From the NCBI GenBank assembly GCA_964457775.1, contig CAYWEW010000005.1, forward strand, positions 5,398 to 69,397: a stretch of 64,000 nt of DNA. The letters are read 5' to 3'. The position numbers were made by a program, and so were the translations under genes. This stretch comes from an uncultured Candidatus Saccharibacteria bacterium. Its GTDB lineage: Bacteria; Patescibacteriota; Minisyncoccia; Phycocordibacterales; UBA5272. Shown here piece after piece: positions 20,019 through 62,635 of the stretch (positions are counted from its first letter, which is position 1; each line of letters starts with the position of its first letter). The notes below the pieces were generated by a model that had not been told where the DNA came from, did no database searches, and worked only from the letters and a program-made list of their open reading frames with translations.

Positions 20019-20993
20019 ATGAAAAAAATAGTCACAATTGGGGGCGGAACAGGAAGTTATACATTACTAAGAGGTCTTAAACATTTTGATGATATAGAAA
20101 TATCTGCAATTGTTTCTATGGCTGATGATGGAGGGTCAACTGGAATGCTTCGTGACGAGCTCGGAGTTCTTCCACCAGGTGATGTTAGACAATGTTTAGT
20201 GGCGCTATCTCTTCATGATGAAGTAGTTCGTAAGCTGATGAAGTATCGTTTTGAGGAAGGGTCACTCAAAGGGCACAACTTCGGTAATATTTTGCTTGCA
20301 GGACTTGAGAAAACGGCTGGTTCTTTTGTGAAAGGCGTAGAAATTGCATCTGATATTTTAAAAATAAGAGGTAAAGTAATTCCCGTAACAGAAGATGTAG
20401 CGAATCTTCTTGTTGTTTTGAAAGATGGAACTGAATTACTTGGTCAAAATAATATTAATCATTCAGATATTCAATCTGTAGGGGTGAAGGAAGTTCTGTT
20501 TCAAGGGGCAGTAGAAATAAATGAATTAGCTAAAAAGGCGATTATAGAAGCAGATCTTATAGTTCTTGGCCCTGGTAATTTTTATTGTTCACTAATGCCT
20601 AATTTTATAGTTGATGGTTTTAAGGAGGCAATTAATGAATCAAAAGCAAAAATCGTGTTGCCTGTTAATCTTACAAATAAAAAGGGACACACATTATTTT
20701 TTAATGTCAGCGACTATGTTAGAGAAATCGAAAGCATGTTAGATAAGAAGATTGATTATATTATTTGTAATAATGAAACACCATCAGATGAACAAATTGA
20801 AATGTATAAAGTAGAAGAAGGGGATGGTGTAATGGTGTTAAATGATATGAAGGAAGACAAGAGAATTATTTCTACACCCGTATTGTCGCATGAAATTATA
20901 GTAAAATCAGAGCATGATAATGTAGCAAGTACCCGTAGTTTTATCCGTCATGATAGTAAGAAAATAGCCGAAGCAGTACATAATTTGTTATGA
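20019..20993 (+). CDS. YvcK/CofD-like gluconeogenesis-factor family protein (UPF0052)
   Basis: IVTIGGGTGSYTLLRGL...SMADDGGSTGMLRDELGVLPPGDVRQCLVAL. Confidence 0.85.
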   Translation: MKKIVTIGGGTGSYTLLRGLKHFDDIEISAIVSMADDGGSTGMLRDELGVLPPGDVRQCLVALSLHDEVVRKLMKYRFEEGSLKGHNFGNILLAGLEKTAGSFVKGVEIASDILKIRGKVIPVTEDVANLLVVLKDGTELLGQNNINHSDIQSVGVKEVLFQGAVEINELAKKAIIEADLIVLGPGNFYCSLMPNFIVDGFKEAINESKAKIVLPVNLTNKKGHTLFFNVSDYVREIESMLDKKIDYIICNNETPSDEQIEMYKVEEGDGVMVLNDMKEDKRIISTPVLSHEIIVKSEHDNVASTRSFIRHDSKKIAEAVHNLL

Positions 20994-24933: not shown

Positions 24934-27030
<2,097 letters not shown>

Positions 27031-27190
27031 AGTCAAAAATTTTCTTCATTTACTTTGTCGCTACGATATTTTTTTCTGTCGCCGTAGGTCTACTACGTCT
27101 TCTTTAAAAAATATCTAAGCTTCTCGTAACTGAAGTAATTTTTGACTTTAGTCCTTCGTTCGAGTTTAGTGATAAATTTTTTTACTATTT
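27031..27190 (+). repeat. Intergenic repeat (family C, copy 1)
   Basis: Shares ctttgtcg / gtcgccgta / tacgtcttct / aatttttgacttt blocks with 45113..45250. Confidence 0.45.
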
Positions 27191-28310: not shown

Positions 28311-28823
28311 ATGAAATGGGTAATTTTTACAGGGACATGGCGCCTTACGAATAAAGAAGTGGAGGAAGATGTGCGAAGTGCTGTTCGTGATTGTGTTTCA
28401 AATGGTTATGGAATAGTGACAGGAGGGGCGACAGGAGTTGATTATTTTTGTATGGATGAATGTGTGAAAAATAATTATACACACAAATTACGAGTATTTA
28501 TTCCATCTGATATTGATCATTACATAAATGATTATCATAAAAATTGGTGTCAGGAGCCAATTACAGAAAAAGATATTTCTGACGTTGAAAATATTTTACG
28601 AAAAATACAACGAATAAACCCTGTTTCTTTATTGGAAATTAAACATGGGGGAGGTGATATTACACAAGATCATTACAACGAAAGACATAATCAAGAAATT
28701 ATTTTTTCAGCTGATGAAGTACACGCTTTTCAAGTAAACAATAGTACTGGTACACAAGACACTATTGATAAAGCAAAAGCCTCAGGTCTTAATATTACTT
28801 TACATAAAAAATATACAATTTAA
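28311..28823 (+). CDS. Rossmann-fold protein, DprA/LOG/SLOG-superfamily-like
   Basis: GIVTGGATGVDYFCMDE resembles the DprA/SLOG SGGARGID motif. Weak. Confidence 0.35.
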   Translation: MKWVIFTGTWRLTNKEVEEDVRSAVRDCVSNGYGIVTGGATGVDYFCMDECVKNNYTHKLRVFIPSDIDHYINDYHKNWCQEPITEKDISDVENILRKIQRINPVSLLEIKHGGGDITQDHYNERHNQEIIFSADEVHAFQVNNSTGTQDTIDKAKASGLNITLHKKYTI

Positions 28824-40573: not shown

Positions 40574-41043
40574 GTCCCACTTCAATAATGTCTTATCCCT
40601 AAAACGCATATTAATACTTATGTTTGAACATAGGTCACAATGTGCGTTTTTTGTTTTATAAATATTTTTGTGTACAATCAACTGTCCAAAGTTCTACAAA
40701 AAGGTATACTTAATTGCATATGAATACAAAGAAAGATTCTTTTAATAAAGCTTCAGTACTAGTTGCTTTAACATTTGTATTAGGAACAATAACATATGCG
40801 TGGACTGGGGCTCCAGAAGGAACACCACCAGCAAATAACGTAGATGCACCAGTGAACGTAGGTGTTGTAACTCAACTTAAATCAGGGGCTCTTGGTATTG
40901 ATGGATTATTTAGGTCATATGGCAGTGCTATTTTTGATGGAGGTGTTAAGATTTCTACTGATTCAGGTCTAGGTAAAATTCTAACAAGCGATGCAGCAGG
41001 TAATGCTTCTTGGACATCAACTTCTTCTTTGGGGATTAGTGGA
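40565..41043 (+). repeat. Tandem duplication unit 1 (promoter plus 5' coding cassette)
   Basis: About 99% identical to 41415..41893 (period 850 bp). Identity decays over about 30 nt, then the 3' parts are unrelated. Confidence 0.85.
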
Positions 41044-41376
41044 GGAAACGGTGGAGTTTCATCATTTGTAGAAGATTCTTACTCTGATCAAACAACAACA
41101 CGTTTGATTGGTTCCACATACACAAACACATTATTAACACCAAGATTTGTTATAGTCACCGCAAATACAATTCCAGGATCTGTTGTTCGAGCAGCTATAT
41201 TTGTTTATGTGAACAATGTTCGAATACAAGTAACACAAGTTACAGATGCGAATTACAACCAAGGGTGGTTACCATCTACGAATTCTGCTTCATTTATAGT
41301 TCCTCCAGGTGCAACGTATCGAGTCGACAGGTCTGTTAGCAATGTGCGTATAGTTTCATGGTATGAATTAAATTAA
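40714..41376 (+). CDS. Secreted/surface protein, paralog B of the variable family
   Basis: Signal anchor plus the conserved module (AWTGAPEGTPPANNVDAPVNVG...GNASW), then a unique C-terminus. Confidence 0.6.
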   Translation: MHMNTKKDSFNKASVLVALTFVLGTITYAWTGAPEGTPPANNVDAPVNVGVVTQLKSGALGIDGLFRSYGSAIFDGGVKISTDSGLGKILTSDAAGNASWTSTSSLGISGGNGGVSSFVEDSYSDQTTTRLIGSTYTNTLLTPRFVIVTANTIPGSVVRAAIFVYVNNVRIQVTQVTDANYNQGWLPSTNSASFIVPPGATYRVDRSVSNVRIVSWYELN

Positions 41377-41414: not shown

Positions 41415-41893
41415 GGACAATAATCCCCACTTCAATAATGTCTTATCCCTAAAACGCATATTAATACTTATGTTTGAACATAGGTCACAATGTGCGTTTT
41501 TTGTTTTATAAATATTTTTGTGTACAATCAACTGTCCAAAGTTCTACAAAAAGGTATACTTAATTGCATATGAATACAAAGAAAGATTCTTTTAATAAAG
41601 CTTCAGTACTAGTTGCTTTAACATTTGTATTAGGAACAATAACATATGCGTGGACTGGGGCTCCAGAAGGAACACCACCAGCAAATAACGTAGATGCACC
41701 AGTGAACGTAGGTGTTGTAACTCAACTTAAATCAGGGGCTCTTGGTATTGATGGATTATTTAGGTCATATGGCAGTGCTATTTTTGATGGAGGTGTTAAG
41801 ATTTCTACTGGTTCAGGTCTAGGTAAAATTCTAACAAGCGATGCAGCAGGTAATGCTTCTTGGACGTCCACTTCTTCACTGGGTATTAGTGGA
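41415..41893 (+). repeat. Tandem duplication unit 2
   Basis: See unit 1. Confidence 0.85.
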
Positions 41894-42343
41894 GTTGGTG
41901 ACGTCACATCAATTACGGGTGGCGCCTGTGCGGTTGGGCAAGTAGTTCAGTCAATTAGTGCAACAGGGACTGTAACTTGTGGTGTTGATGCTGGAGGGGG
42001 TACAGGGTTTTCTGGAATACTGAGACCGCTTGAGGGAAAGGAGATAACTTGTAACATAACGCAGGGTGGCGCTGTAGCTGGAAGGGGATATGGGAAAGTT
42101 GAGGGAGGTGTATTTAAAGCGAGAGTTGTATGGGCTAGTATTGCGTATAGACCATATGATTCTGGATGGAAATCTGGTAATTCTATGGGTGTACAAGCAA
42201 ATTTAGTTAGCGCAACATACGGACATGTAAATGTTGGATTAAGTGGAGCAACTTGTACAGGATACACATCTAGTGGCGGGGGTGACAATGCTTCACTTGA
42301 TCAAATCCCAGAGTCAACATCTGTTCCTTGGCCAAATTTTTAA
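41564..42343 (+). CDS. Secreted/surface protein, paralog C of the variable family
   Basis: First about 110 aa essentially identical to paralog B. The C-terminus is Gly/Cys-containing and unique. Confidence 0.6.
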   Translation: MHMNTKKDSFNKASVLVALTFVLGTITYAWTGAPEGTPPANNVDAPVNVGVVTQLKSGALGIDGLFRSYGSAIFDGGVKISTGSGLGKILTSDAAGNASWTSTSSLGISGVGDVTSITGGACAVGQVVQSISATGTVTCGVDAGGGTGFSGILRPLEGKEITCNITQGGAVAGRGYGKVEGGVFKARVVWASIAYRPYDSGWKSGNSMGVQANLVSATYGHVNVGLSGATCTGYTSSGGGDNASLDQIPESTSVPWPNF

Positions 42344-42655: not shown

Positions 42656-44443
42656 ATGCAACAGGAAATTCGTAACATCGCCATTATCGCTCACGTAGAC
42701 CATGGTAAGACAACCCTCACAGACGCACTCATGCAACAGTGTGGTGTTGGTGTTGAAGGTCAAACAATGGACTCAAATCCAATGGAAAAAGAGCGTGGAA
42801 TTACAATTACAGCGAAGAATACTTCCGTTCCATATAAAGGTGTAAAAATAAATATTCTAGATACTCCAGGTCACGCTGACTTCGGTTCTGAAGTAGAACG
42901 CGTTTTGCGTGCTATTGATTGTGTGTTACTTGTTGTTGATGCACAAGAAGGTCCAATGCCTCAAACACGTTTCGTACTTAAGAAATCCCTTGAACTTGGC
43001 ATTAAGCCAATCGTCGTTATTAACAAAATTGATAAGCCAGCAGCAGATCCAAAGAAGGTTCACGATGAAGTGTTCGAATTATTCATGGAACTTGGTGCGA
43101 ATGATGAACAACTCGACTTCACTACAGTTTATGCTATTGGACGACAGGGTGTTGCGATGAAAAACTTGGAAGACGAGAAAAAAGATTTAACTCCACTTCT
43201 TGAAGTTATTTTGGAAAAGGTACCAAAGGCAACAGGGGATATAAATAACCCATTTAAGGCGCAAGTATTCAATCTCGCATATGATAATTTCCTTGGACGT
43301 ATGGCTGTTGCTCGTGTATATGACGGAGTCGCAAAAGTTGGTGAAGAAATAATTGTGAAGAAGGCAACTGGTGAAACAAGAAAGGGGAGAATCACTAAGA
43401 TGTTCACATTTAACGGCATCGCAAGAAATGATGCTCAAACTGCCGAAGCGGGAGATATCGTTATGATTGCAGGATTCTCAGATATTTTCATTGGTGAAAC
43501 ATTTATGAAAAATGAAAGTCAAGAACCATTGCCTGCTATTCATATCGATGAACCAACAATCGCTCTTAATTTCCTTGTTAACGATTCACCATTTGCTGGT
43601 AAAGAAGGAAAGTTCGTAACTGGTCGTCAGATTCGTGATCGTCTAGAAAAGGAACTTGAAATAAATGTAGGTCTACGTGTTGATTTTGATACAGAAAAAT
43701 ATTTAGTATATGGTCGTGGAGAATTACACATCGGCGTACTTCTAGAAACAATGCGTCGCGAAGGGTATGAACTTCAGGTGTCACAACCACAAGTTATTTT
43801 CCATGAAAAAGATGGAGTGAAAGAAGAACCATACGAAGAACTTGTTATTGATGTTCCAGTAGAATCTTCCGGTGTAGTGATGGAAAAGCTTGGACGTCGT
43901 AAAGCGATGATTACCGATATGAGTGAGAAGCATGGAGTGAATCGTATTAAGGCAGAGATTCCTACTCGTGGTCTTCTTGGATATCGTGGAGAATTCGTGA
44001 TTGATACTAAAGGTCTTGGTATTTTATCTGCTCGTTATCTTAAGTTCGGTCCATACGCTGGTGAAATTACTCGTCGTTTAGTTGGCTCTATGACTTCAAT
44101 GGCAACAGGAAAGTCTCTTGCATTCTCACTTTGGAATCTTCAAGATAGAGGTGTTATTTATATTCTTCCTACAACAGAAGTTTATGAAGGTATGGTTATT
44201 GGTAATACATCAAAAGGTGAAGAAATGATGGTTAACCCAACTAAAGGAAAGCAACTTTCTAACATGCGTTCATCCGGTGCGGATGAAGCAATCGTACTTG
44301 TTCCTGCATGGGAAATTAGTATTGAACGCGGACTTGAAATCATGAATGCGGATGAGTATCTAGAGGTTACACCTAAGTCAGTGCGTCTACGAAAGCAGTT
44401 GTTAACTGAGAGTGAGAGAGCGAGGTCAGGTAGAAAGTCATAA
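42656..44443 (+). CDS. typA: Translational GTPase TypA/BipA
   Basis: IRNIAIIAHVDHGKTTL, DTPGHADF, NKIDK; EF-G-like domains; length 595 aa. Confidence 0.9.
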   Translation: MQQEIRNIAIIAHVDHGKTTLTDALMQQCGVGVEGQTMDSNPMEKERGITITAKNTSVPYKGVKINILDTPGHADFGSEVERVLRAIDCVLLVVDAQEGPMPQTRFVLKKSLELGIKPIVVINKIDKPAADPKKVHDEVFELFMELGANDEQLDFTTVYAIGRQGVAMKNLEDEKKDLTPLLEVILEKVPKATGDINNPFKAQVFNLAYDNFLGRMAVARVYDGVAKVGEEIIVKKATGETRKGRITKMFTFNGIARNDAQTAEAGDIVMIAGFSDIFIGETFMKNESQEPLPAIHIDEPTIALNFLVNDSPFAGKEGKFVTGRQIRDRLEKELEINVGLRVDFDTEKYLVYGRGELHIGVLLETMRREGYELQVSQPQVIFHEKDGVKEEPYEELVIDVPVESSGVVMEKLGRRKAMITDMSEKHGVNRIKAEIPTRGLLGYRGEFVIDTKGLGILSARYLKFGPYAGEITRRLVGSMTSMATGKSLAFSLWNLQDRGVIYILPTTEVYEGMVIGNTSKGEEMMVNPTKGKQLSNMRSSGADEAIVLVPAWEISIERGLEIMNADEYLEVTPKSVRLRKQLLTESERARSGRKS

Positions 44444-44581
44444 ATTATCCATTTACGTTGTTCGAGCAGTTTGACTGCGAAGATGTCCGAAACTACCAAG
44501 TGTAGGACATGAATCGATTAACTGGAGCAATTTCTGACTTTCGGGCTCATACATACAGTTACATACGAATACAATTCGATT

Positions 44582-45112
44582 ATGAAAAAAAATAAATACA
44601 ATCAAAAACTGAAAGCAAAAGTTCTTGAAGCAAAAAATAATAAATTTTTTTCTGCAATAATTATTATACTGTTTTTCTTTGTTGGTATGTATGGTTACCG
44701 TTGTCTTTCTGAAAAGGTTTGTGAGATAGATGTTTTAGAAAGATTTGTTCGACATGATATAACTATTACTACTCCAAATGGAGCAATGACAGTGGAGGTT
44801 GCTGACACAAAAAGCTCTAGAGAGCTTGGTCTTTCTGGTCGCACTAAAATGAACGATAATGATGGTTTGCTTTTTATTTTTGATCATCCTGGACGGTATG
44901 GATTTTGGATGAAAGATATGTTATTCGCACTTGATATTATTTGGATAAATCAAAATGGCGTTATTGTTGAAATAGAAAGAAATGCAAAACCAGAAGACTA
45001 TCCAAAAACATATATTAATAAATCTGAAGCAAGTTATGTGCTTGAATTGAATGCTGGTATTGCAGAAAAGCAGGGACTTTTTATCGGCTCAAAAGTAAAG
45101 ATTATAGAATAA
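44582..45112 (+). CDS. DUF192-family protein (COG1430)
   Basis: GLSGRTKMNDNDGLLFIFDHPGRYGFWMKDMLFALDIIWIN. Confidence 0.7.
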   Translation: MKKNKYNQKLKAKVLEAKNNKFFSAIIIILFFFVGMYGYRCLSEKVCEIDVLERFVRHDITITTPNGAMTVEVADTKSSRELGLSGRTKMNDNDGLLFIFDHPGRYGFWMKDMLFALDIIWINQNGVIVEIERNAKPEDYPKTYINKSEASYVLELNAGIAEKQGLFIGSKVKIIE

Positions 45113-45250
45113 AAGTCATAAATTGCGAAGCTACTTTGTCGAAAGGCATATTTTTACAGTCGCCGTACTTACACGTACGTCTTCTGTAAAAATATGCCTT
45201 TCTTCGCGTATCTTCATCAATTTCTGACTTTTCTTACCATATCAAAGTCT
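45113..45250 (+). repeat. Intergenic repeat (family C, copy 2)
   Basis: See 27031..27190; also shares caatttctgacttt with 44521-44540. Confidence 0.45.
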
Positions 45251-45384
45251 GGTGATAATAAAGCAATAGATTCCTTTTGGTGCTGTTCACATCTTTATTT
45301 TTTTATACAAAAATTATATTAGTTCATAAAACCTTTTATTATCAATAGTTTTTATCTTAGTTCAATAAAGACTCTCAAAAAAGC

Positions 45385-45412
45385 TTGACAAAAAATATCT
45401 ACATGCTATACT
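45385..45412 (+). promoter_or_regulatory. Near-consensus sigma-70 promoter
   Basis: TTGACA (45385-45390), 16-nt spacer, TATACT (45407-45412). Confidence 0.6.
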
Positions 45413-45418
45413 ATAAGA

Positions 45419-45580
45419 GTTGAGACGAAGTGTTTACTTGAGGTGTCGGTCCGTGGGCCAAACCAAATGGTTTTCATGTAGTAATGAACTCAACCGCATC
45501 GGAATACCAGATGCGAACAGCGCTATGACCCAGATGTCTCCACGGAGGCAAAAGGCGAGCGCTTTTTATTTTGTATATTT
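45419..45580 (+). ncRNA. Candidate small RNA (about 155 nt, identity unassigned)
   Basis: Bounded by the promoter above and the hairpin aaaaggcgagcgcttttt plus T-tract. No ORF. Several internal helices (gttgag/ctcaac, gcatc/gatgc). Confidence 0.4.
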
Positions 45581-45624
45581 GAATTAAAAGAGCGACACCT
45601 TTCGGTGTCGCTCTTTTATCTTTT

Positions 45625-45960
45625 GTTCTATCTATAAGCCGAATTCTGTCCATGTGGTTACCCACATTGTGTAATCATGTATCTGGGCGATATTTTACAA
45701 TACCGCTCTAGCGACACTCTCATATTGCTATGAGCACGGTCTTGCACACACGTAAGGATTTAGCCGTTTCAATTTTATCTTTCGATAAACATATTCCCGA
45801 AGGAACCCTAGTCTTTCGACATTGGCGTCACTGCTCGCACCTCTATGATTGCTCACGACGGGTGTTACCCGCTACGATCACTAATTTAAAAGTAATGTGT
45901 TCGGACTTTCCTCTCTCGGTGGTAGTATTTCAACCACAAAGAGCGATTACCCAGTAGAAC
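45625..45960 (-). ncRNA. rnpB: RNase P RNA (bacterial type A-like, reduced)
   Basis: Minus strand reads GAGGAAAGTCCGAACAC (P4), GGGTAACACCCG, GGTGCGAGCAGTGACGCC and 3' ACAGAATTCGGCTTATAG (E. coli-like ACAGAACCCGGCTTATCG). P1 is GTTCTAC/ATAGAAC. A terminator hairpin 45587-45620 lies downstream. Confidence 0.75.
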
Positions 45961-46053
45961 AAAAAAATAATACAACATATTTTACAAAAAAGCAAGTATA
46001 GATACAATTCCACGTGCTTTTATCTGCATTTTTTGTTAGTATGGAGGGATATT

Positions 46054-61330: not shown

Positions 61331-62614
61331 ATGAAAGATCTCATTAAACCAATAATCATAAGAATCCTAACTTGGGAAGCAAAACTCGTCCTTAAGAAGC
61401 ATAAACCATTTATTATTGGGGTGACGGGGAATCTCGGTAAGACTAGTACTAAGGACGCAATTTATGCAGTGATGAAACAACACTTTTATACTCGCCGTAG
61501 TGAGAAGAGTATGAATAGTGAATTCGGAGTGCCTTTAACTATTCTTGGTGAAAAATCTGGCTGGAGTAATCCATTTAAGTGGATGGTTATTATGGTGCGT
61601 GGTATTTTTGTTATTTGGCAAAAAAGTTATCCTACTCACCTTGTTCTTGAAATAGGAGCTGATAGACCAGGGGACATAAGAGATATTGCTAGTTGGGTAA
61701 ATCCTAACATTACTGTTGTAACACAGTTCGGCCAGGTGCCTGTGCATATAGAATTCTTTCCTGATCGCGACGCAGTTATAACCGAAAAGGGGTATCTAGT
61801 GAAAGCACTTAAGGACACAGGTTTATTTATTTACAACGCAGATGATAATGATGCAAAGAAATTATTAGAAACAACAAATGCTCGTAAAGTAAGTATCGGT
61901 ATTCACGAGAATGCAGACATTAAGGCAGATCACGTTAAGATGTACGGTAATCCATTAGATGGTACTGAAGCAGATGTTGTAATGGGTAATGAAAAATGTC
62001 ACGTAGTCTTACCTGAAGTAGTTGGTAAGTCGCCAGTATATTGTGCGCTACCCGCACTTGCTATTGCTCGCGAGCTAAATATTTCCCTTGAAGTTGCGTG
62101 TGCGTCGCTTCGTGATGCCGATAAACCAAAAGGAAGAATGAGATTATTGAGAGGTATGAATGGTTCTACAATTATTGATGATACTTATAACGCATCGCCG
62201 AAAGCTACAGAACACGGACTAAAAACTTTAAGTGAAATGAGTGTGAAAGGGCGTAAGATTGCAGTGCTTGGAGATATGCTTGAACTCGGGCAACACACCC
62301 ACGATGAGCATTATAAGATAGGAATGGAAGCATCGAAGTCATGTCATAAATTATACACAGTTGGTATTCGTGCGCGCATAATGGCTGAGGGGGCACTTGA
62401 TGGAAAAATGTTAGATGACAATATTATGCAATGTGATACAGCAATTGACGCAGGGAAAGAATTGGTTCAAGTACTTGGTCCGAATGACGTTGTCTATGTG
62501 AAAGGTTCACAAGGAACAAGAATGGAAAGAGCTGTGAAGATGATATTGGCAAGTACTCATGACCCGAAAAAGGTACTCGTTCGCCAAGAATCCGAATGGC
62601 TTAAAAAGTCATAA
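61331..62614 (+). CDS. murF: Mur ligase, most consistent with UDP-MurNAc-pentapeptide synthetase MurF
   Basis: P-loop GVTGNLGKTSTK; IIDDTYNASPKATEHGLKTL (MurF-like DDSYNANP). Confidence 0.65.
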   Translation: MKDLIKPIIIRILTWEAKLVLKKHKPFIIGVTGNLGKTSTKDAIYAVMKQHFYTRRSEKSMNSEFGVPLTILGEKSGWSNPFKWMVIMVRGIFVIWQKSYPTHLVLEIGADRPGDIRDIASWVNPNITVVTQFGQVPVHIEFFPDRDAVITEKGYLVKALKDTGLFIYNADDNDAKKLLETTNARKVSIGIHENADIKADHVKMYGNPLDGTEADVVMGNEKCHVVLPEVVGKSPVYCALPALAIARELNISLEVACASLRDADKPKGRMRLLRGMNGSTIIDDTYNASPKATEHGLKTLSEMSVKGRKIAVLGDMLELGQHTHDEHYKIGMEASKSCHKLYTVGIRARIMAEGALDGKMLDDNIMQCDTAIDAGKELVQVLGPNDVVYVKGSQGTRMERAVKMILASTHDPKKVLVRQESEWLKKS

Positions 62615-62635
62615 ATTTTTTACAATAATATATAT

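Follow-up and report, generated by a model that had tools for sequence, protein, structure and literature searches.

The ORF-poor segment that separates the DUF192 gene from the RNase P RNA gene (rnpB) is tentatively interpreted here as a young or recently acquired, strain-specific non-coding RNA gene carried as a self-contained expression cassette, a reading to which we give somewhat less than an even chance. The candidate is probably transcribed and may work by base-pairing as a young sRNA; that it is instead a non-functional remnant of sequence turnover at this site is nearly as likely. Were it both transcribed and functional, it would exemplify a regulatory RNA that is young and confined to one strain, in a bacterium of the CPR/Patescibacteria type. 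The readings as 6S, SRP or tmRNA are rejected. The main value of the analysis is in fact this negative one, namely that the locus is not the missing 6S, SRP or tmRNA of the lineage and should not be annotated as such. The context proved more informative than the candidate itself, as it combines rapid turnover of cargo and inversion of rnpB with a conserved family of palindromic repeats, set at stop codons, alongside; the pervasive leaderless-looking gene starts are likewise of more note than the candidate.

The window, meaning the whole 64,000-nt stretch of DNA that was analyzed, derives from a CPR/Paceibacterota-type bacterium with a GC content of 35%. The interval between the DUF192 stop codon and the murJ start (45113-46047, ~935 bp) holds no convincing gene, in agreement with the protein-free interval of about 900 bp described in an earlier, sequence-only reading of this DNA. 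Amongst its components, in order, are a palindromic element, an AT-rich spacer, a promoter-like site, the GC-rich body of the candidate, an irregular hairpin, a 15-bp terminator and rnpB (Table 1). The candidate had been described as lying head-to-tail with rnpB; since rnpB is on the minus strand (45962 to 45619), the two are convergent (tail-to-tail) instead, and they meet at the shared hairpin 45585-45618.

Table 1. Coordinates of the features at and around the candidate. Positions are those of the window, except for the last row, which refers to the related locus L001.
Feature	Position	Strand	Remarks
DUF192 gene	44582-45112	+	upstream border of the protein-free interval
Palindromic repeat element, 120 nt	45112-45231	+	directly after the DUF192 stop, left edge of the variable slot; z -11.4
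AT-rich spacer	45232-45384		homology to L001 stops near 45298 (CACATCTTTA)
Sigma-70-type promoter TTGACA-16-TGcTATACT	45385-45412	+	11/12 consensus match, extended -10
Predicted transcript body, ~150 nt, GC-rich	45419-45570	+	start inferred from the -10 box
5' domain, 78 nt	45419-45496	+	no structure beyond chance; z -0.20, 79/200 shuffles equal
55-codon TTG ORF across the body	45420-45587	+	judged non-coding
63-codon ORF across the body	45474-45665	-	antisense to the body
Stable internal hairpin CGCAUCGG-AAUA-CC(A)GAUGCG	45495-45516	+	-10.3 kcal/mol; z -4.96, 0/200 shuffles
Irregular branched hairpin closed by AGCGCU/AGCGCU, then TTTTTATTTTG	45519-45573	+	weak intrinsic terminator
Perfect 15-bp hairpin terminator	45585-45618		between the cassette and the rnpB 3' end; z -8.6
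rnpB, bacterial RNase P RNA class A, full length	45619-45962	-	RF00010, 107 bits, E 9.7e-32
murJ start	about 46048	+	downstream border of the protein-free interval
ORF-poor cassette of L001	L001:3190-3500		promoter TTTACT-16-TATAAT, ~210-nt body, own strong 12-bp terminator

The TTGACA-16-TATACT pair reported from the sequence alone is present, and a TG extension precedes its -10 box. The accompanying claim that it is the best -35/-10 pair of the window did not hold, as it ties with three other sites that match the consensus at 11 of 12 positions. Four such sites were observed in the window against 4.4 expected from shuffles, which counted against the sRNA reading; the consensus match by itself is not beyond chance. 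Only the candidate promoter amongst these four sites carries the TG extension. Upstream of this genome's genes, the -10 box is most commonly TATACT and often carries a TG extension, while native -35 boxes are poor (mean 2.8/6) and a perfect TTGACA is unusual. The candidate promoter is of the type native to this genome (TATACT with TG extension), with an unusually good -35 box.

The same survey indicated that most genes of this genome look leaderless, because a -10-like box lies 4-13 nt before the ATG in 33 of the 46 ORFs of at least 150 aa in the whole window; only ATG starts were surveyed, and all of the leaderless-looking genes surveyed begin with ATG. Examples of such starts are found at 1273, 7427, 12514, 27522, 42656 and 44582. 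Shine-Dalgarno sequences are rare in this genome. A literature search for leaderless translation in Patescibacteria found nothing specific.

The body of the candidate stands out by its composition, with a GC content of 0.42-0.51 versus 0.19-0.23 in the spacer directly upstream; for comparison, rnpB has 0.43, the tRNAs 0.51-0.60 and the genes an average of 0.36. Folding of 45418-45575 gave a minimum free energy of -46.7 kcal/mol (z -1.75), and the body as a whole, with z values between -0.5 and -1.75, is no better folded than its shuffles, which was also counted against the sRNA reading. The internal helices described earlier are confirmed in part: they hold for the stable internal hairpin and for the terminal hairpin at 45519-45563 (-18.8 kcal/mol, z -2.57), but not for the 78 nt at the 5' end. 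Similarly, the hairpin and T-tract said to end the body are present, but the hairpin is irregular and went uncalled in a consensus terminator scan, which called only the perfect hairpin at 45585-45618. The latter is the sole part of the wider region delimited in the sequence-only reading that is kept in relatives.

Sequence signals of an independent transcription unit are in place, with the promoter at 45385-45412 and terminators at 45519-45573 and 45585-45618. Transcription would start near 45419 and would end either at the weak terminator, yielding ~150 nt, or at the strong hairpin, yielding ~205 nt. The product would carry no 5'-terminal AUG, though most genes in this genome look leaderless. 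Its predicted layout is a ~75-nt weakly structured 5' region followed by one stable hairpin and then by a U-tailed terminator, and base-pairing in trans would be its most likely action because this is the layout of such sRNAs. Like orphan trans-acting base-pairing sRNAs, the candidate has a stand-alone promoter and terminator, is intergenic, measures ~150-200 nt and combines a weakly structured 5' part with a stable hairpin and a U-tailed terminator. Additionally, its phylogenetic distribution is very narrow, as is common for orphan sRNAs of this kind. It is unlike them in having no convincing target and no homologue, and so no covariation. We know of no use of base-pairing sRNA regulation in CPR-type bacteria, and a literature search for small or regulatory RNAs in CPR organisms found nothing specific.

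The best duplex predicted between the candidate and an mRNA, amongst the 46 genes scanned, covers the start of the ORF at 28311 (-35.5 kcal/mol, equaled by 2 of 767 shuffles) and consists of two blocks, one of 13 bp that covers the start codon and one of ~14 bp from +17 to +35. This ORF (28311-28823) encodes 170 aa with a GGATGVD motif and ranks first among the mRNA partners predicted for the candidate's 5' region. The candidate pairs better, however, with at least eight unrelated segments of 50 nt in the same 64 kb, which was counted against the sRNA reading, and the pairing at 28311 is unremarkable relative to the genomic background.

The gene order TypA-DUF192-[rnpB]-MurJ-LepA is kept in more than 25 related CPR/Paceibacterota-type genomes. 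Nineteen syntenic GTDB loci were fetched via MurJ (57-85% identical), and the order is kept in the 13 of these 19 that reach far enough upstream. In searches with blastn (word size 7) and nhmmer and in an all-versus-all comparison of the intergenic regions, the segment 45267-45576 matched nothing in these syntenic relatives; their intergenic regions could be aligned solely in rnpB, in its terminator and in the palindromic element. Closer relatives were reached via DUF192 homologues with 94, 84, 76 and 73% identity, and none of them has the body. Altogether, the body is absent from L001-L019, L024-L027 and L036-L042 by blastn, and from L001-L019 by nhmmer as well. A covariance model (R1) that was derived from this one sequence and its predicted structure found nothing in 217 kb of 23 related loci.

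Outside these loci, two pattern scans of JGI metagenomes (mixed exact and R/Y patterns) returned 0 and 8 matches, all due to chance, three scans of IMG/VR viral contigs returned 9 chance matches in one and none in the two others, and BLAST searches against phages and plasmids gave only AT-rich chance matches to the spacer. The body was found only in the same-strain copies L020-L023 (GCA_013558375.1, SRR10036065, SRR10036056), and these are uninformative about selection because they are 100% identical; the recurrence of the identical sequence in three data sets was nonetheless counted in favor of the sRNA reading. No diverged homologues of the body were found, and so neither covariation nor selection is indicated. 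The sequence-only reading had named a lack of conservation of the interval in related genomes, along with the absence of a transcript, as speaking against the RNA; for the body this lack was observed, as 45267-45576 has no blastn, nhmmer or covariance-model match in any syntenic relative. Its suggestion of a lineage-specific sRNA needs to be narrowed to a strain- or species-specific one.

The site occupied by the candidate is variable amongst relatives with the same flanking genes. In L024-L026 (DUF192 94% identical) the slot contains the gene of a 188-aa membrane protein and rnpB is inverted, in L027 (DUF192 84% identical) it is empty, with the rnpB terminator no more than 20 nt after the DUF192 stop codon, and in L036-L042 (DUF192 76% and 73% identical) it contains only rnpB in the plus orientation. 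The slot is empty in L006 as well. Unrelated genes of 188-391 aa fill it in L002, L008, L010, L016, L018 and L024, those of relatives other than L024 encoding 212, 257, 231, 264 and 391 aa, and a relative with a DUF192 protein 79% identical has a gene-free interval of 1040 nt. From these comparisons, the slot between DUF192 and rnpB is evidently hypervariable, with its cargo exchanged. It resembles variable genomic islets, in which a slot between conserved flanks contains unrelated cargo in closely related genomes; unlike such islets, the cargo here is ~280 nt long and non-coding, and no integrase, direct repeats or attachment site were found.

The orientation of rnpB is itself variable. Together with its AAAAGAGCGAC...GTCGCTCTTTT terminator hairpin, rnpB lies in opposite orientations amongst close relatives, as observed when the window copy (45619-45962) was compared with those of L008, L017, L018, L024 and L036-L042. 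Because the orientations differ between the same flanking genes, rnpB appears to have been inverted locally on repeated occasions.

This turnover bears directly on the strongest alternative, in which the candidate is a non-functional remnant of slot turnover, either leftover DNA or a recently acquired foreign fragment of higher GC content, that came by chance to lie behind promoter-like AT-rich sequence and ahead of the rnpB terminator, so that any transcript would be noise. We regard this as a serious contender, with a chance of roughly one in three. It agrees with a hypervariable slot that holds nothing, unrelated genes or a different cassette and next to which rnpB inverts, with the absence of the body from every relative examined, with 11/12 promoter sites being no commoner than chance and with a 5' half that has no structure beyond chance. 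Against it, no trace of a protein gene was found in the body by tblastn with the relatives' slot proteins (a test for a pseudogene) or by Pfam, nor was there any credible phmmer match; an old, neutral stretch this rich in GC would be expected to decay in a genome of 35% GC; and promoter, stable hairpin and terminator are all correctly ordered and oriented within 190 nt of intergenic DNA. The sRNA reading is ranked slightly above the remnant because a native-type promoter, the stable hairpin and the two terminators follow one another as they should within those 190 nt, because the body is similar in GC content to the stable RNAs of the genome and because no coding remnant was found.

That the slot can hold cargo of the RNA type is suggested by L001, in which a different promoter-RNA-terminator cassette is found at this position. 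Its MurJ is 85% identical, and its left flank is shared with the window up to CACATCTTTA (window ~45298). The body of the L001 cassette is predicted to form an end-paired multi-helix RNA with GNRA loops (z -3.83, 0/200 shuffles); the cassette has no Rfam match and no homologue amongst the other loci. The two cassettes share the slot and the left junction, and both have their own promoter, their own terminator and no Rfam match. They show no similarity in sequence or structure, and the L001 cassette is longer (~210 nt plus terminator) and clearly structured, whereas the window RNA is not. Homology between them was rejected, as their pairwise alignment is random beyond the shared left flank. A broader proposal would make the slot a cassette-exchange site, in which strains hold different self-contained cassettes, either protein genes or, as in the window and in L001, structured or semi-structured ORF-less RNAs, with the palindrome and the invertible rnpB as recombination substrates. 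We consider this proposal unlikely; if true, the window RNA would belong to a pool of RNA genes, exchangeable and fast-evolving, of ultra-small bacteria.

The region had also been described as free of ORFs, which is incorrect, as ORFs of 55 codons on the plus strand and 63 codons on the minus strand span it. The plus-strand frame raises the alternative of a small protein gene, read either as 55 codons from the TTG at 45420 (leaderless) or as 44 codons from a GTG at 45453, an internal start option behind GAGGTG-N7. This ORF covers exactly the interval from promoter to terminator, its TAA stop (45585-45587) lying at the 5' edge of the hairpin 45585-45618, the GAGGTG sits 7 nt ahead of the GTG, and the TTG coincides with the predicted +1, in keeping with the many leaderless genes of this genome. 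However, its GC3 is 0.48 versus 0.23+/-0.03 in this genome's genes, its codon log-likelihood of -0.175 is below the 5th percentile of genes (+0.137), its GC content by codon position is 0.41/0.45/0.48 versus 0.48/0.36/0.23 in genes, and codon-position periodicity is absent. By codon usage and positional GC it is atypical of the genome's genes, which speaks against a small protein gene.

Additional evidence against the small protein comes from the rarity of Shine-Dalgarno sequences and from the ATG starts of the leaderless-looking genes, in a survey that took ATG only. The Pfam search of the ORFs gave no match, and phmmer with the 55-aa ORF against 1.84 billion representative proteins returned only summed weak matches to giant Ig-repeat surface proteins, which are regarded as a repeat-inflated artefact. 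By our own estimate, a 55-codon open frame at such composition would arise by chance in about 1 of 4 cases over six frames. The region of the body is judged non-coding, and we hold a small protein gene to be quite improbable.

An orphaned cis-regulatory leader, i.e., a riboswitch or attenuator whose regulated gene was lost from the slot, or one that gates read-through across rnpB towards murJ, appears very unlikely. The order of promoter, structured segment and terminator does resemble a transcription attenuator, but no riboswitch or leader family was matched beyond terminator-driven noise, a transcript would meet two consecutive terminators and then cross rnpB in antisense, murJ is served by its own promoter-like sites (45981-46008) and there is no conservation.

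The weakest alternative is a divergent housekeeping RNA (6S, SRP 4.5S or tmRNA) missed by the Rfam models, which the size, the GC content, the strong promoter and the stable RNA gene next door might suggest, and which we consider hardly credible. The sequence-only reading had found no match to SRP RNA or tmRNA and had named an Rfam scan for 6S, SRP, tmRNA and small SRP as a check; its statement was borne out by that scan. A scan of the whole window at Rfam gathering scores found no 6S and no tmRNA, and a scan of 45100-45640 against Rfam 15 with permissive filters found no family matching the body even at E<=10, the matches listed at that level being noise driven by the terminator hairpin. SRP RNA (4.5S), marked by its helix 8/domain IV motif, was rejected, as no SRP family matched at E<=10, and so was tmRNA, marked by tRNA-like ends and a tag-peptide frame, as neither ARAGORN nor Rfam found one; on the window ARAGORN identified four tRNAs and no tmRNA.

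The suggestion of a 6S-like RNA failed on several grounds. The candidate is comparable to 6S RNA (RF00013) in its length, its stand-alone gene and its strong promoter, but unlike 6S RNA it has no model match at E<=10. Its predicted fold consists of a 5' multiloop, a separate hairpin and the terminator, with ends that are not paired with each other in either the MFE or the centroid structure, and so differs from the end-paired rod with a large central bubble. It is also not kept amongst close relatives: the candidate is absent where neighboring proteins are 84-94% identical, as an essential RNA would not be, and its covariance model found nothing in the 217 kb of related loci. Conservation would be expected of a housekeeping RNA and is not observed, so the candidate is not one. 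What stands of the earlier assignment as an unassigned small RNA does so weakly, in that no known family matches and the sequence is not protein-like; the housekeeping reading attached to it does not stand.

Amongst other possibilities, a link to tracrRNA or CRISPR was rejected, as no CRISPR arrays were found within the window, and a partial duplication of rnpB was rejected, as the longest match to rnpB is no more than 7 nt. No second copy of the body was found within the window.

Recoding of TGA was rejected as well. TGA is the stop codon of 1 of the 34 ORFs of at least 200 aa in the whole window (TAA 22, TAG 11), and it looks rare rather than reassigned because the long genes hold no in-frame TGA. 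The sole TGA stop, at 20991-20993, overlaps the ATG of the next ORF at 20990.

The palindromic element at the left edge of the slot belongs to a family of 110-120 nt with copies at 44434-44541, 45112-45231 and 27029-27149, and with its 5' motif alone at 62605-62617. The elements have AAAGTCA...TGACTTT ends and an apex with a GTCGCCGTAS hairpin, each start at the stop codon of the gene upstream or overlap it (TypA, DUF192 and a 693-aa ORF) and fold as long hairpins (z -4.5, -11.4 and -8.0). Orthologous copies occur in L001, L002, L005, L009 and L019, and the apical hairpin shows one compensatory change among them. These elements may be REP- or MITE-like, or may be terminators lacking a U-tract. 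Farther upstream, the neighboring ORFs 40714-41376 and 41564-42343 are nearly identical over their N-terminal 110 aa (MHMNTKKDSFNKASVLVALTFVLG...) but diverge beyond that point, and the pair has the appearance of a secreted or surface protein that was duplicated and whose C-termini vary.
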